DNA of 64,000 nt from Halarcobacter sp. (GTDB lineage: Bacteria > Campylobacterota > Campylobacteria > Campylobacterales > Arcobacteraceae): NCBI GenBank assembly GCA_050296315.1, contig JBNKRE010000006.1:89760-153759 (forward strand), written 5' to 3'. The notes beneath the pieces were generated by a model. The model was not told where the DNA came from, ran no database searches, and saw only the letters and a program-made list of their open reading frames with translations. Shown here piece by piece: positions 5,871 to 16,928 of the stretch. How positions within the stretch are numbered: the stretch's first letter is position 1; every line of letters begins with the position of its first letter. The position numbers were made by a program, and so were the translations under genes.

Positions 5871-5905
5871 AATATGGTTTAAAATTTAAATTTTTAAACC
5901 ATATT
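5871..5905. terminator. Bidirectional hairpin between convergent MCP and nnrS
   Basis: AATATGGTTTAAAA / TTTTAAACCATATT 14-bp inverted repeat. Confidence 0.6.
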
Positions 5906-7073
5906 AATTTTTTATTCTAAGTAAAGTTCTTGTATATCTAAAACTCCAAATTAAAAATAACACTATCCATAACATTGAACTTAGATGTAAAAATCCCATA
6001 AAAATATTTGAATCACTTAAAAATAAAAAAGAAGCAGTTATTCTAGATATAACAACTATTTGTGTTAATACAAATATAAATATTGTTAGTTTATCAGCTA
6101 CAATTTTTTGTGCAGGTATTGCATGACCCATTACAACTCTACTTCCAAAACCTATTAGTAAAGTTGTTATAAACCCCAAAGCAAAAATATGAAGGGCAAG
6201 TTTTAGAGAATAAAGATTAAAAATAGATTCTATAAATAAAACTATAAAACCAATTTCAAACCATATAAATGATAAGACAAGAATAGATATTATTGCAGGA
6301 GTTTTTTTATAAATATTTAATTTAAAAACAATATATCCAAAAAATATCATTGCAAAAAAAGTAACTATTTTAACTATTTGAAGTTCAAACTCTAAAGATA
6401 AACCTAAAATAAAAAAAATAGTTATAGAGATTTCTCTTATATATCTTGGTTTTTCCCATTGAGCTATTTGCATATATGCACTATAAAATGCAGGAACCAT
6501 TCTTAAAGCTACTAAAAATACTAAGCAGATTAGATAAGCAAAAAATATCAATAAAGATAAATTTGTTTGAAAAATCACTTCTAAAAGTAAAAATATAGCT
6601 CCAAACAAAAACACAAGATTTATAAAGATGCTATCTTTTTTATTTGGAATTTTCCCTTTTTTTATTATTTCATAAAAAGTTTTTACAAAATAAAGCATTG
6701 TAAAAGAGACTATAATTTTTCCTAAAATAGAAAAACCAATTAAAGATAAAATTACTCCAATTTGATAAGTAAACCAAGGGATAAGATAGCTGTTTTTACT
6801 TATAACTTCTGATGCATTGTATTTTGGTATTACAGTTATCAAAAATCCTAAAAAAGCATTTGTTAAAACTGCATAGTTTAAACCAAAACCATGAATCAAA
6901 GAGAATTCTAAAGGTATTTTTCCTAAAAATGAGATAAAAGTTAAAACCATTATTGTAATAGCAAAAAATATCGCACTTGTAAAATAAAGCTGATGGGCTT
7001 GAGAGCTAAATCTATCCCACCATTTTTCTTCAATAGGAACAAAAAAGTTGTTTGGATTTGTAGAGAAATTCAT
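5904..7073 (-). CDS. nnrS: NnrS family membrane protein (NO/nitrosative stress)
   Basis: Polytopic hydrophobic protein; HGFG..Y...LGFLITVIPKY, RMVPAF, LHIFALGF...GSRVVMGH patterns; context. Confidence 0.8.
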   Translation of the reverse strand: MNFSTNPNNFFVPIEEKWWDRFSSQAHQLYFTSAIFFAITIMVLTFISFLGKIPLEFSLIHGFGLNYAVLTNAFLGFLITVIPKYNASEVISKNSYLIPWFTYQIGVILSLIGFSILGKIIVSFTMLYFVKTFYEIIKKGKIPNKKDSIFINLVFLFGAIFLLLEVIFQTNLSLLIFFAYLICLVFLVALRMVPAFYSAYMQIAQWEKPRYIREISITIFFILGLSLEFELQIVKIVTFFAMIFFGYIVFKLNIYKKTPAIISILVLSFIWFEIGFIVLFIESIFNLYSLKLALHIFALGFITTLLIGFGSRVVMGHAIPAQKIVADKLTIFIFVLTQIVVISRITASFLFLSDSNIFMGFLHLSSMLWIVLFLIWSFRYTRTLLRIKN

Positions 7074-7115
7074 AATTTTTCCTTAAATAATATATTAAAA
7101 GCAATATAGCTATTT

Positions 7116-7130
7116 TAATAATCACTATCA
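7116..7130. promoter_or_regulatory. Fur/PerR-like 7-1-7 box in nnrS promoter
   Basis: TAATAAT-C-ACTATCA, 2 mismatches to TGATAATnATTATCA; abuts the Nss box. Confidence 0.4.
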
Positions 7131-7144
7131 TTGATATAAGTCAA
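7131..7144 (-). promoter_or_regulatory. Nss/FNR-type box upstream of nnrS
   Basis: TTGATATAAGTCAA; -10 TATATT at 7103-7108 (minus), 22 nt away. Confidence 0.8.
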
Positions 7145-7158
7145 TAAATTTAAAAATA

Positions 7159-7737
7159 TTAATCCTCTTTGGAGTCTTTTTTTGGATTGAGTATGAATTT
7201 ATTAAATTTTATTCCATCAGGGTAGTGTCTATGTTTTGAAATATTATTTACAACTAAAGCAATTACTAATAATATCACAGCACCAGTAGTGACAGGATAT
7301 AAAACATAGATAAAACCTAAATTATGAATATCATCACTTCCTAAAACTGCTATTAATGCAGTTGCTCCTCCTGGAGGATGTAAGGTTAATGTTAGTTGCA
7401 TTACAAAAATAGAAGTTGCAACTGCAAAAGCAGAACAAAAAAGTAAATTTCCAAAAAAAAGTTTATATGAAACAACACCAATTATAGCAGATAGTATATG
7501 TCCACCAAGAAGATTTCTAGGTTGTGCCAAAGGGGAATGAATAGCTCCATAAACTAAAACAGCACTTGCTCCAAATGAACCTATAACTAATCCTAAGTCT
7601 TCATCTCCTAAAATACCTCTATGAAAAAGTGTTATAAATAATATTCCAAGAAAAGAACCTATCCAAGACCAGATAATATTTGATCTTTCAAGAGGTTCAG
7701 TATTTATTTTTTTAAATTGTTTAAAAAATTTTTTCAT
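7159..7737 (-). CDS. HPP family membrane protein (possible nitrite transporter)
   Basis: SFGASAVL, SPLAQPRNLLGGH and LHPPGGATAL motifs; ATG at 7737 preferred, in-frame TTG at 7758 is an alternative. Confidence 0.9.
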   Translation of the reverse strand: MKKFFKQFKKINTEPLERSNIIWSWIGSFLGILFITLFHRGILGDEDLGLVIGSFGASAVLVYGAIHSPLAQPRNLLGGHILSAIIGVVSYKLFFGNLLFCSAFAVATSIFVMQLTLTLHPPGGATALIAVLGSDDIHNLGFIYVLYPVTTGAVILLVIALVVNNISKHRHYPDGIKFNKFILNPKKDSKED

Positions 7738-7756
7738 ATGCCTCTTTTTTATATTC

Positions 7757-7783
7757 AAAAAAAGCCCTCAAAAAAGAGGGCTT
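7757..7783 (-). terminator. Intrinsic terminator inside the HPP 5' leader
   Basis: Minus strand AAGCCCTC-TTTTTT-GAGGGCTT followed by TTTTT. Confidence 0.7.
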
Positions 7784-7892
7784 AATGATTTAATTTTAAT
7801 TAATTTTTATATTGTTAAATCTAAAAGATCACCATATATTGATTCTACTTTATGTAGTTTTTTTAGTATATATAAAAATAAAAAGAAAAAAT

Positions 7893-7906
7893 TAGACTTA
7901 GGTCAA
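7893..7906 (-). promoter_or_regulatory. Nss/FNR-type box (1 mismatch) upstream of HPP leader
   Basis: TAGACTTAGGTCAA; -10 TATACT at 7865-7870 (minus), 22 nt away. Confidence 0.7.
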
Positions 7907-7927
7907 GAAATAGAGTTTTATAGCTAT

Positions 7928-7941
7928 TTGATTTGAATCAA
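7928..7941 (+). promoter_or_regulatory. Perfect FNR-consensus box upstream of Cys-rich microprotein
   Basis: TTGATTTGAATCAA; TATAAT at 7964-7969, 22 nt away. Confidence 0.85.
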
Positions 7942-7994
7942 TATAAAAGTAGTAATTTTTAAGTATAATCAATTTATAAACTTAGGGGTAGATT

Positions 7995-8183
7995 ATGTTT
8001 TTTAATCTTTTTAAAAAAAAGAAGTATATTAAGATGAAACTTCCAAAATATGTATGTAAACATTGTAAATATACTTGCAAAAATTGTGATATGCTTTTTT
8101 GTTATTCTTGTCATATGAATGAAGCTAACCCTTGTCCTAAATGTGGAAAAAGAAATATTGACTATCAAAAAAATGATTCTTAG
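7995..8183 (+). CDS. 62-aa Cys-rich putative metal-binding microprotein (4 CxxC)
   Basis: CKHC-x3-CKNC-x4-CYSC-x7-CPKC; AGGGG RBS; dedicated promoter. Confidence 0.75.
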   Translation: MFFNLFKKKKYIKMKLPKYVCKHCKYTCKNCDMLFCYSCHMNEANPCPKCGKRNIDYQKNDS

Positions 8184-13649: not shown

Positions 13650-13675
13650 ATAAAAGGGTTGATTCCCTTTTATTT
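13648..13675. terminator. Bidirectional terminator between hcp and cytochrome c
   Basis: AAATAAAAGGG-TTGATT-CCCTTTTATTT. Confidence 0.7.
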
Positions 13676-13957
13676 ACCAATTTTTTGTGCGATTGCTTCA
13701 ATATCAGCATCAGATAAAGCTGCTACTTGACCTTTCATCAAACCTTTCATAACTCCACCATATGAACCATCTTTATAACCTTTCATAGCACTTACAATTT
13801 CAGCTTTAGTCATATCTTTGATGATTTTAGATTTCCCCATCGCTGCTTTTTCACCAGTTGCACCGTGACATGCAACACATCTAGCATACACATCTGCTGA
13901 TGCATTAACTGCCAATAATCCTAATAATATAACTGATGTAGTTAAAATTTTTTTCAT
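13670..13957 (-). CDS. Monoheme cytochrome c (c553-like)
   Basis: Signal peptide ending ASA, CVACH heme motif, distal Met (GVMKGLM). Confidence 0.92.
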   Translation of the reverse strand: MKKILTTSVILLGLLAVNASADVYARCVACHGATGEKAAMGKSKIIKDMTKAEIVSAMKGYKDGSYGGVMKGLMKGQVAALSDADIEAIAQKIGK

Positions 13958-14773: not shown

Positions 14774-15763
14774 ATGAAAAAAGAGATTAGTGTTAGTGGG
14801 AAAATAAAGATTTTAGGGGCATTACTAATATCTACAGTATTTTTTGTAATTTGTGTATCTTTATATTTAAATTTAAAAAATTCAAAAGATGCAACTATTA
14901 TAAATATTGCTGGTAAACAAAGGATGCTTACACAAAAAATTACTAAAAATATCTTTTATTTATACCAAACAAAATCAAATAATTTTACACAAATTGATAA
15001 TGCAATAGAAGAGTTTAATTATGGATTAACAACTCTAAAAGATGGAAATGAGTTATTAAATATATCTGCTGCTCCAACAGATATAATAAGTAATCAAATA
15101 TCAAAAGTTATAGTTTTATGGAATACTTTTGAAAAAAATACAAAAGAGTTTAAAGAAGCTATTTTAAAAGATGATATTCAAAAACAAAACTCTATATTAA
15201 AATATATGTATGAAACAAATACTATACTTTTAGAAGAAGTTGATAAAGTTGTAAGTTTATATACAAGATATATTGAAGAAAAAACTGCATTTATAAAAAA
15301 CTTCCAATATACTTCCTTTGCATTAATGTTTATGTTGACAATTTATTCTTTGGTGCAATTAAAACAAATTGAGTCTCATGCAAAAGAGTTTATGTCAAAA
15401 TATAATCAATTAAATTCGGGTGAGATAACTAATTTAGAACCTATACACGTAGAGAGTGAAAAAGAGTTTGTAGAGATGGCAAACAATATGAATAATTTTA
15501 TAAATAAAGTAAATTCTGCTATGAATTATTCAGAATCAGCTCTTGAACAATCAAAATTAGCATCAGAAAAATTGTTAGATTTAACAGATGAGTTTGAAAA
15601 TATTATTGATGAGTTAGGAAATAAATCAGAAATAGTAAAAGAGATAAATAGAAGTGAAGATATCGCTATCGAGTCATCAGAAAATCTACTTAAGACTACT
15701 AAAAAACTAAATGATTTAAAAACACAACTAGATTTACTATTAAAAAACTGTCAAAATAAATAA
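14774..15763 (+). CDS. Membrane protein with NarX/PilJ-type nitrate-sensing domain, no kinase or MCP output domain
   Basis: TM1, P-box-like INIAGKQRMLTQKI, TM2, then about 130 aa helical tail without H-box or MCP hairpin. Confidence 0.8.
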   Translation: MKKEISVSGKIKILGALLISTVFFVICVSLYLNLKNSKDATIINIAGKQRMLTQKITKNIFYLYQTKSNNFTQIDNAIEEFNYGLTTLKDGNELLNISAAPTDIISNQISKVIVLWNTFEKNTKEFKEAILKDDIQKQNSILKYMYETNTILLEEVDKVVSLYTRYIEEKTAFIKNFQYTSFALMFMLTIYSLVQLKQIESHAKEFMSKYNQLNSGEITNLEPIHVESEKEFVEMANNMNNFINKVNSAMNYSESALEQSKLASEKLLDLTDEFENIIDELGNKSEIVKEINRSEDIAIESSENLLKTTKKLNDLKTQLDLLLKNCQNK

Positions 15764-15840
15764 GCCAAGAAGGAAGATAAAAAAAATATTAGTTTAGGAA
15801 TTGTTTTTTAATTATAGGAGGAGAACCTTCTTGGTTATTT
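15752..15840 (-). ncRNA. Candidate Nss-controlled small RNA with anti-Shine-Dalgarno loop
   Basis: Box 15875-15888 plus TAAAAT 15847-15852; CCAAGAAGG/CCTTCTTGG closing stem; loop contains UUCUCCUCCU; boundaries inferred. Confidence 0.35.
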
Positions 15841-15874
15841 GATAAAATTTTAACTGAAATTTTTAGTAAATAGT

Positions 15875-15888
15875 TTGACTAAAATCAA
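15875..15888. promoter_or_regulatory. Nss/FNR-type box in a convergent intergenic region
   Basis: TTGACTAAAATCAA; -10-like hexamers 22 nt away on both sides (TAAAAT minus, TATATT plus). Confidence 0.65.
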
Positions 15889-15914
15889 ATATCTAAACTT
15901 TTTCAAATATTATA

Positions 15915-16928
15915 TTATTTCCATTTAACTTTTTTAAATACTTCTACAGCTTTATGATTATAGTATCCAAGGTATTCCATATTTATTTTATCTTCTTTAA
16001 AATTCCCCCATGATTTTAATAATTCTAAGGGTTCAACTGCTTCATTGATTGGGTATTCATAAGAAGCTTCTGCATAGATTTTCTGAGCTTTAGGACTTAC
16101 CATAAACTCCATGAATTTGATTGCATTTTCTTTATTTTTGCTATATTTTACAACACCCATTCCTGAAATATTTATATGACTACCTCTTTCGTTTTTTCCT
16201 TGGTCAGGAAAAAATATACCAATATCATCAGTAAGTTCAACTTCATGAGGTTTTTTTGAATTTATCAATTTAGCAAGATAATAAGTATTTATAATTGCAA
16301 CATCACCTCTATTATATGATATAGATTTTATTTGGTTAGTATCACCTTCTAATGGGCTTCTAGCTAGGTTTTTTATAATACCTTTTGCCCATTTTGTTGT
16401 CTCTTTTTCACCTTCGTATGCTATAAGTGCTGCTAACAATGACATATTATACATTTCGGTTGATTTTCCTACAACAATCTTTTTTTTCCATTTTGGTGTT
16501 GCTAAATCTTTATATGTTGATAATTGGGATGGAGAAACTTTCTTTTTATTATATGCTATAACTCTAGCTCTTTTCGTAAGAGCATACCAATAACCCTTTT
16601 TTTGTCTTAAATGACTTGGTACAATCTTCTCTAGTTTTTCTGATCTTATTGGTTGTAATAAATCATTATATTGTGCATAAACAAGCCTTCCTGCATCAAC
16701 TGTGATTAATACATCAGCATCTGTATCTTTTCCATCTGATTGAATCTCTGTAAGCACTTCTGATGAGTCCAATTTAGTTACATTTATTTTTATACCAGTT
16801 TCTTTTTCAAACATTTCAAATAATTGTTTATCTGCAAAATAGTATCTGTGAGAATAGACATTTAATACATTTGATGCATTTAATGATGAAAATAATATTA
16901 ATGCACCTATAATTAATTTTAAAATCAT
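15915..16928 (-). CDS. Fe(III) ABC transporter substrate-binding protein (FutA/FbpA-like)
   Basis: Signal peptide, LNVYSHRY, DVLITVDAGRL, WYALTKRARV, INTYY, HINISG; Fur-like box upstream. Confidence 0.88.
   Translation of the reverse strand: MILKLIIGALILFSSLNASNVLNVYSHRYYFADKQLFEMFEKETGIKINVTKLDSSEVLTEIQSDGKDTDADVLITVDAGRLVYAQYNDLLQPIRSEKLEKIVPSHLRQKKGYWYALTKRARVIAYNKKKVSPSQLSTYKDLATPKWKKKIVVGKSTEMYNMSLLAALIAYEGEKETTKWAKGIIKNLARSPLEGDTNQIKSISYNRGDVAIINTYYLAKLINSKKPHEVELTDDIGIFFPDQGKNERGSHINISGMGVVKYSKNKENAIKFMEFMVSPKAQKIYAEASYEYPINEAVEPLELLKSWGNFKEDKINMEYLGYYNHKAVEVFKKVKWK

Follow-up and report, generated by a model that had tools for sequence, protein, structure and literature searches.

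Enterobacterial small RNAs derived from the 3'UTRs of protein-coding genes include NarS, which comes from the narK mRNA, as well as CpxQ, SroC and DapZ. The general concept of pseudogene-derived sRNAs covers small RNAs and transcripts that arise from decayed protein-coding genes. A further point of reference is FnrS (RF01796), the FNR-activated small RNA of E. coli and Salmonella. We compared these systems with a short promoter–terminator unit on the minus strand of a 64,000-nt stretch of Halarcobacter sp. DNA (hereafter the window), located directly before an intact gene for a 192-aa HPP-family membrane protein (7159..7737, minus strand; PF04982, E 2e-58; ATG at 7737). Like FnrS, this unit has a predicted class II Crp/Fnr promoter with the box at -41.5, a length of ~100 nt and an intrinsic terminator; judged by sequence, the FnrS-like layout of a Crp/Fnr box near -41.5 and a short, terminator-ended unit without an ORF is present. 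Unlike FnrS, its RNA would be Hfq-independent and would originate from a protein-coding gene remnant, and no anti-Shine-Dalgarno seed was recognised in it. FnrS itself was absent from an Rfam search of the window even at E<=10.

The unit resembles NarS and other 3'UTR-derived small RNAs in three ways: the predicted RNA corresponds to an mRNA 3' end, with the terminator in common; its parent is a gene of an anaerobic/nitrogen-oxide regulon; and the 3'UTR is conserved above expectation. It departs from them in that the parent coding sequence has been deleted and transcription of the RNA would begin at the gene's own promoter, with no processing or internal promoter involved. Unlike NarS, CpxQ, SroC and DapZ, it resides in a genome without Hfq and has no similarity to any Rfam family. 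As with pseudogene-derived sRNAs, the gene flanks are kept, the coding part is lost and intact homologues exist in relatives, but in three lineages conservation in parts of the window unit exceeds the synonymous rate, and coding-less units recur with different junctions. A terminator hairpin between a promoter and a coding gene is also the layout of attenuators and riboswitch expression platforms. In contrast to these, the unit has no antiterminator to compete with the hairpin, its alternative pairing is located 3' of the U-tract, and no aptamer-like conserved leader precedes HPP in any orthologue inspected. The distinctive feature of the unit is its origin from a gene with a deleted coding part, and it is a member of neither the FnrS nor the NarS type; we regard it as a candidate gene-remnant or 3'UTR-type small RNA.

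The unit opens with a Crp/Fnr-type box, TTGACCTAAGTCTA (7906-7893, minus strand), followed after 22 nt by the -10 hexamer TATACT (7870-7865, minus strand), so that transcription is predicted to begin near 7858, at a distance of 41.5 nt from the centre of the box. The box is identical at 14/14 positions in the MAG Arcobacter sp. SZUA-449 (G010), in the metagenome contig NPID01000318 and in the genomes G020 and G002, in the last two upstream of an intact cytochrome c gene. Hexamer and spacing are the same in all five of five homologues, and the rule of box plus 22-nt spacing also holds at the promoters of nnrS, of a microprotein gene and of HPP orthologues, and at a further box in G010 (box3). 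The stretch transcribed before the terminator is about 100 nt long and A/U-rich, and the unit contains no ORF of at least 20 aa on the minus strand. A 5' hairpin, CUAC-AUAAA-GUAG (7845..7857, minus strand), was found by folding at the junction that the missing coding sequence has left, with counterparts at the same place in NPID01000318 (CUACUUAAA/UUUAAGUAG) and in G010 (a 14-bp stem). The small 3'UTR hairpin GAUCU-UUU-AGAUU (7818..7830, minus strand) corresponds to GGUCU-UUU-AGAUC in the G020/G002 cytochrome c 3'UTR and to GAUUC-UUAG-GAAUC in G010, and is missing from NPID01000318 through a 15-nt deletion. It is followed by TAATTAAAATTAAATCATTAAGCC (7779..7802, minus strand), the single-stranded, invariant 24-nt core, present in 16 copies in the genus, of a 3'UTR module.

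The unit closes with an intrinsic terminator (7757..7783, minus strand) whose 8-bp stem, with five G-C pairs, is formed by AAGCCCUC (7783-7776) and GAGGGCUU (7769-7762) around a U6 loop (UUUUUU, 7775-7770), and whose U-run (U5-U7) extends to 7757. This hairpin has a predicted energy of -14.2 kcal/mol and dominates the ensemble with a pair probability of 0.997. No other terminator-like site was found within 4 kb, but shuffled sequences give 0.9 +/- 1.0 sites each in the loose consensus scan, so the pattern by itself is not beyond chance; that the terminator is real follows from its energy and pair probability, together with its conservation and covariation in homologues. A G+C-rich stem-loop with an immediate U-tract and a conserved structure thus stands at the 3' end of a transcription unit. 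A preliminary description of this DNA had listed an Nss-driven promoter with a start near 7858, the hairpin, U-tract, ribosome-binding site and start codons, all of which are present on the minus strand. Its outline was upheld as regards a promoter with a Crp/Fnr box (its 'Nss' box), a transcribed stretch of ~100 nt and, ahead of HPP, a strong intrinsic terminator. Just upstream of the box, ~15 nt of the window are left over from the 3' end and stop of a sensor histidine kinase gene: AGCTATAAAACTCTATTTC (7907..7925, minus strand) aligns with ...AAACTATAAAGTTTTATTTTC at the kinase stop in G010 and NPID01000318, in both of which a sensor histidine kinase gene precedes the coding-less unit. Outside the unit, the plus-strand box TTGATTTGAATCAA (7927..7940), 22 nt from a TATAAT, serves a divergent Cys-rich gene of 62 aa (7995-8183, plus strand) whose protein is 62/63 identical in G010.

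The origin of the unit was revealed by comparison with relatives. In blastn searches of 184 genomes of the family, the leader matched G010 (E 1.8e-20) and cytochrome c 3'UTRs in G020 and G002, and its terminator-proximal 70-80 nt matched places in G020, G002 and G022. The G020 and G002 matches flank a gene for a 91-aa monoheme cytochrome c with a signal peptide, a CVACH motif and a PF00034 domain. Upstream of this gene lie the box TTGACCTAAGTCTA, a 22-nt spacer and TATACT; downstream lie GGTGGTCTTTTAGATCTAACAA...TAATTAAAATTAAATCACTAAGCC and then the hairpin and T6. The terminator closes the cytochrome c gene in G020, G002, G015, G016 and G017. In a four-way alignment the promoter and the 3'UTR align and the ~330 nt spanning the ribosome-binding site and coding region form a single gap in the window and G010, which identifies the window segment as the cytochrome c unit minus its coding part. 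A tblastn search with the cytochrome c protein gave no match in the window, G010 and G008 units, and only the C-terminal half in contig C119 of G016. As in a gene remnant, both flanks are homologous to those of the intact gene in relatives and the coding part is absent. At the level of alignment, 7906-7757 is homologous end to end to the monoheme cytochrome c transcription unit of sister species. An origin as a repeat or mobile element was rejected, the leader and hairpin being unique within their own genome.

Coding-less units homologous to that of the window occur in two other lineages, G010 and NPID01000318, the latter with a terminator stem identical to the window's. All three share a CTAC...TAA...AGTAG junction, which points to a single loss of the coding sequence, in an ancestor of these lineages. 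In both G010 and NPID01000318 the unit lies between the kinase gene and a separate box promoter (box3); there the retained promoter has no coding gene to serve, since a box of its own precedes the next gene. The window genome has five other cytochrome c paralogues, all with unrelated 3'UTRs.

The HPP gene itself has orthologues in 19/25 genus genomes. We inspected the leaders at 17 readable loci from the genus search and at 12/17 loci from the collection search, the two sets partly overlapping, and none carried the window-type leader before HPP. Elsewhere HPP is either preceded by a box, 22 nt and TAnnnT, with a start roughly 20-25 nt before the ATG, or lies in an operon after a DUF59 gene; in the window genome it is without a promoter of its own. 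The homologous coding-less units of the two other lineages are 2-5 kb away from HPP, which there has its own promoter; in NPID01000318, HPP lies 2 kb beyond the unit and behind its own box. Among the loci inspected, the adjacency of terminator and HPP is thus specific to the window genome. A Logan contig, representing an independent assembly, is 100% identical, confirming the arrangement and adding no variation.

The neighbourhood points to how this adjacency may have arisen. In the window, HPP is followed by nnrS (PF05940) with its own box; upstream are a split nrdD and then nrdG, with the divergent Cys-rich gene between. G010 shares the nrdD-nrdG and Cys-rich-gene neighbourhood, and its order on the HPP strand begins with box1, an FmdE-like gene, a histidine kinase gene, the coding-less unit and box3. 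It continues with a DUF2249-like gene, a 411-aa membrane protein gene, a DUF59 gene and, on the opposite strand, an Rrf2 regulator gene, and ends with qNor, a box, HPP, a 139-aa gene and NnrS. Missing between nrdG and nnrS in the window are the FmdE-like gene, the PAS histidine kinase, the DUF2249-like gene, the 410-aa membrane protein, the DUF59 gene, the Rrf2 regulator gene, qNor and the DUF2269-like 139-aa gene; qNor and the FmdE-like gene were absent throughout the window-genome assembly. The simplest history of the locus is a set of deletions, one of which, we infer, probably ran between the T-run of the terminator and the T-run at the HPP start, removing HPP's box and hexamer. The whole NO/anaerobic island of the window (5904-8183) is a reduced version of the arrangement at the corresponding G010 (L050) and NPID01000318 (L123) loci. 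Low synteny and promoter rewiring are typical of this bacterial group (PMC3847290), and HPP proteins have been discussed as putative nitrite transporters (PMC7438415).

The preliminary description had interpreted the leader as a two-state switch of the attenuator or riboswitch kind, in which the terminator and a fold pairing with the HPP ribosome-binding site would alternate on a signal and control HPP. The features on which this drew are real: CCUCUUUUUU (7779-7770) is a perfect complement of AAAAAAGAGG (7741..7750, minus strand), the HPP Shine-Dalgarno sequence with its A-run and the 3' partner of the proposed pairing, GAGGG is present 6 nt before a TTG at 7758, and in the long leader's minimum-free-energy fold the Shine-Dalgarno sequence is buried too, together with the start codon. 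Any terminator arm containing CCUC complements a GAGG Shine-Dalgarno sequence, and A6 precedes 18/1162 (1.5%) of the GAGG-N3-8-ATG sites in the window genome; the 10-nt complementarity is a modest and moderately rare coincidence. Energetically, the alternative pairing (-8.2 kcal/mol) is 6 kcal/mol weaker than the terminator and has an equilibrium probability of 0.0004. Its partner at 7750-7741 is transcribed past the U-tract, after the termination decision, and so cannot act as an antiterminator, and the leader at 7858-7784, nearly without G and C, contains no GAGGG-like competitor. Since the adjacency of terminator and HPP is itself unique, the pairing cannot be conserved, and comparison across HPP leaders, the check proposed in the preliminary description, found it unconserved. 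The TTG at 7758, put forward as an alternative start, is not conserved either, the orthologues starting MKKFF at the ATG.

Searches with the window, the sister units and the stand-alone copies gave no Rfam match at gathering score, the best chance hits reaching <=25 bits, in agreement with the earlier view that the element belongs to no Rfam family. An antiterminator before the terminator, a leader conserved in HPP orthologues and a match to a curated RNA family were thus all looked for at this locus and not found. Comparison already largely refutes the two-state leader, which we consider highly improbable; the 10-nt pairing with the HPP ribosome-binding site would instead be a by-product of the deletion. 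The other earlier suggestion, of an independent FnrS-like sRNA, fared better: an independent small RNA gained comparative support and is plausible but unproven; neither FnrS homology nor an Hfq gene was found. Two related candidates were set aside. The only ORF that could encode a leader peptide, ATG GTG ATC TTT TAG (MVIF, 4 codons), has no Shine-Dalgarno sequence and is not conserved. Hairpins that would sequester the Shine-Dalgarno sequence in HPP orthologue leaders (e.g. ATAGTTATACTTC-T7-GAAGGTAACTAT) use the -10 hexamer itself as their 5' arm; with transcription starting within the T-run, as the rule of box, 22 nt and TAnnnT implies, such a hairpin lies outside the RNA.

Conservation was then used to weigh a functional RNA against a relic. 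At 4-fold degenerate sites the window and G010 are 0.76 identical (279/367). Across the unit, the promoter matches at 41/46 positions (14/14 in the box and 6/6 in the hexamer), the 3'UTR at 52/58 (24/24 in the core) and the junction region at 24/55. The central part of the unit shows little conservation and many indels. Three lineages share the box, hexamer and core without any change. By a rough calculation that assumes one ancestral coding loss and independent sites, the chance of 20 unchanged promoter positions is 0.76^20, ~0.004, and that of an unchanged core 0.76^24, ~0.001. The predicted RNAs also fold better than shuffles (z -3.2 for the window and -4.85 for G010), and the match is to an mRNA 3' end conserved beyond neutral expectation. 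Because conservation of the box, hexamer and core exceeds that of synonymous sites, a still-functional small RNA is our leading reading. That the segment is the coding-less descendant of a small cytochrome c transcription unit still yielding a functional, regulon-controlled ~100-nt RNA is a proposition on which we place about even confidence; an RNA of about this length, functional or not, is probably still made.

The main competitor to a functional RNA, doubtful in our judgement though it deserves serious weight, is a neutral relic of a dead cytochrome c gene, whose promoter and terminator would simply not have decayed yet: any short RNA would be functionless, and HPP would be expressed weakly by read-through or be in the course of being lost. 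Such a history suits a locus that is a stripped-down version of the sister arrangement, internal deletions naturally leave flanks intact, the junction has only 24/55 identity to G010, and the NPID01000318 unit has lost the small hairpin. The five cytochrome c paralogues with unrelated 3'UTRs further indicate that cytochrome c genes as such do not need the module. It accounts poorly, however, for a box (14/14), hexamer (6/6) and core (24/24) kept in three lineages against 0.76 at 4-fold sites, for a terminator with compensatory changes, for a promoter retained in G010 and NPID01000318 where it serves no coding gene, and for several kinds of coding-less promoter–module unit across the genus.

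The 3'UTR module proved to be specific to the genus. With <=2 mismatches, the core TAATTAAAATTAAATCAYTAAGCC occurs in 16 copies in 9/25 genus genomes and in none of 21 other genera, and a reversed-control core gave no match; a covariance model extended the module to 19/25 genus genomes. All 16 copies fold alike, into a small hairpin, an unpaired A/U-rich stretch with the core and a strong terminator. Across them the terminator helix is paired in 99% of cells and shows compensatory double changes at 3/7 pairs; its covariation of 0.36 compares with 0.16 in shuffles (0/500 as high) and with <=0.165 when the helix is slid. The core after the cytochrome c paralogues keeps 22-24/24 nt, whereas the proteins are ~65% identical. 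Explanations of the core as a -10 box and as a palindromic protein site were rejected, there being no box at the right distance and most copies not being palindromic.

Seven copies of the module directly follow cytochrome c paralogues, often beside a kinase gene, and two follow a cytochrome c-porin pair. One copy each follows a half-deleted cytochrome c gene and an 11-codon stub, and three end a ~190-nt non-coding intergenic RNA candidate. Several others consist of promoter and module without any coding remnant (window/G010/NPID01000318, G008 and G019/G021/G005). Counting contig C23 of G016, the coding-less promoter–module units are of four kinds (window/G010/NPID01000318; G008; G016:C23; G019/G021/G005), and as their junctions differ, the coding part was lost more than once. 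Decay intermediates that keep promoter and module were seen at three loci, as an 11-codon stub (L064, G016:C23), as the C-terminal half only (L067, G016:C119) and as a fully coding-less unit (L078, G008:C2).

Two further sets of loci carry the module in longer units. Stand-alone units of a promoter, ~150 nt and the module are conserved in three species (L082 in G019, L081 in G021 and L080 in G005); their upstream hairpin has a compensatory change (AUCUAAAGG...CCUUUAGAU vs UUCUAAAG...CUUUAGAA), and we consider them candidate small-RNA genes of the module family. A ~190-nt intergenic unit follows a phosphofructokinase-like gene at L051 (G002:C11), L053 (G020) and L052 (G022). It has a promoter-like TTTATTTACTACAAT and a long hairpin with a C/U-rich, anti-Shine-Dalgarno-like loop, UCUCCCUCCCUU, and its 3' part comprises a GAUC-GAAA-GGUC hairpin, the invariant core and the terminator. 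This unit is probably non-coding, since one species lacks an ATG that another has, and it had no Rfam match.

We propose that, when the local Crp/Fnr-type regulon is active (anaerobiosis, nitrate or NO), RNA polymerase would start near 7858, transcribe about 100 nt and mostly halt at the terminator at 7783-7757, which would be an ordinary, constitutive one. The released non-coding RNA would consist of the 5' hairpin and the cytochrome c 3'UTR module, with its small hairpin, A/U-rich core and terminator. Most likely this RNA would be under selection still, as an Hfq-independent 3'UTR-type regulator now expressed alone. No Hfq gene (PF17209) was detected in the window genome, with control genomes positive; tblastn with the E. 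coli CsrA and Hfq proteins likewise gave no match, the query being uninformative for a divergent CsrA. The core is of low complexity, and its 16-mer occurs with <=2 mismatches at well over 100 places in the A/T-rich window genome, too many for a specific target search. A broader version of the proposal is more tentative and, taken whole, rather unlikely: the module, with its invariant AAUUAAAAUUAAAUCAYUAAG, would be the working domain of a genus-wide, Hfq-independent Arcobacter RNA family, cytochrome c genes would have been converted repeatedly to stand-alone sRNA genes, and the window unit would be one of these, wired to NO and anaerobiosis and gating HPP after a later deletion.

For HPP, the deletion would have fused the 5'UTR to the terminator T-run with loss of the box and -10, leaving expression possible only from polymerases that read through. 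A strong predicted terminator directly before an intact HPP gene is awkward for this account, implying either substantial read-through or a nearly silent HPP. Alternatively, HPP would be transcribed from a weak promoter at or just past the terminator T-run, the candidate being TGAATATAAA at ~7757-7748 with TATAAA as its -10, which would give a very short leader independent of the upstream unit. TATAAA (7753-7748) fits TAnnnT/TATAAT at 5/6 positions, a T-run precedes it as before other -10 boxes in this group, and HPP orthologues are predicted to start in a T-run 20-25 nt before the ATG. A start 7 nt past this hexamer would, however, fall in the GAGG, only ~4 nt from the ATG, and the transcript would lack a Shine-Dalgarno sequence; no Crp/Fnr box stands at the required 22-nt distance, and a simple sigma-70 scan lists nothing there. 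We consider such a promoter improbable, and read-through from the coding-less unit would predict an HPP that is under-expressed or read-through-dependent in the window strain.

These comparisons remove a false riboswitch/attenuator lead and indicate how a look-alike switch can originate, when a deletion places a foreign terminator next to the 5'UTR of a gene. The ~100-nt RNA, if functional, would be a documented case of a regulatory RNA that arose from the untranslated parts at the two ends of a protein-coding gene, with intact, half-decayed and fully converted stages coexisting in a single genus. Its source would moreover be a bacterial group without Hfq and with almost no described small RNAs.

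Several other observations were made in the course of this analysis. The window contains another orphan box promoter (15700-15960), 88% identical over all 261 nt in G010; no relative was found with a coding gene at this place, so this promoter is seemingly not a remnant of the same kind. An intact cytochrome c paralogue in the window (13673-13957, minus strand), 69% identical to the G020 protein, has tandem boxes TTGATTTAAATCAA and TTGACTTAAATCAA upstream and a short unrelated terminator without the module. In Arcobacter sp. YIC-310 (L101), the gene for the Cys-rich microprotein and HPP are transcribed divergently, with nothing but one box, TTGATATATATCAA, serving as the centre, which is a third arrangement of this neighbourhood. 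Cytochrome c genes lie directly downstream of sensor kinase genes repeatedly, at L056, L069 and L065 (G015, G016 and G017) and at L050. The kinases before the small cytochrome c genes are proteins of 346 aa or 620 aa ending in ...ACFTIKIP, which suggests a conserved kinase-cytochrome c pair.
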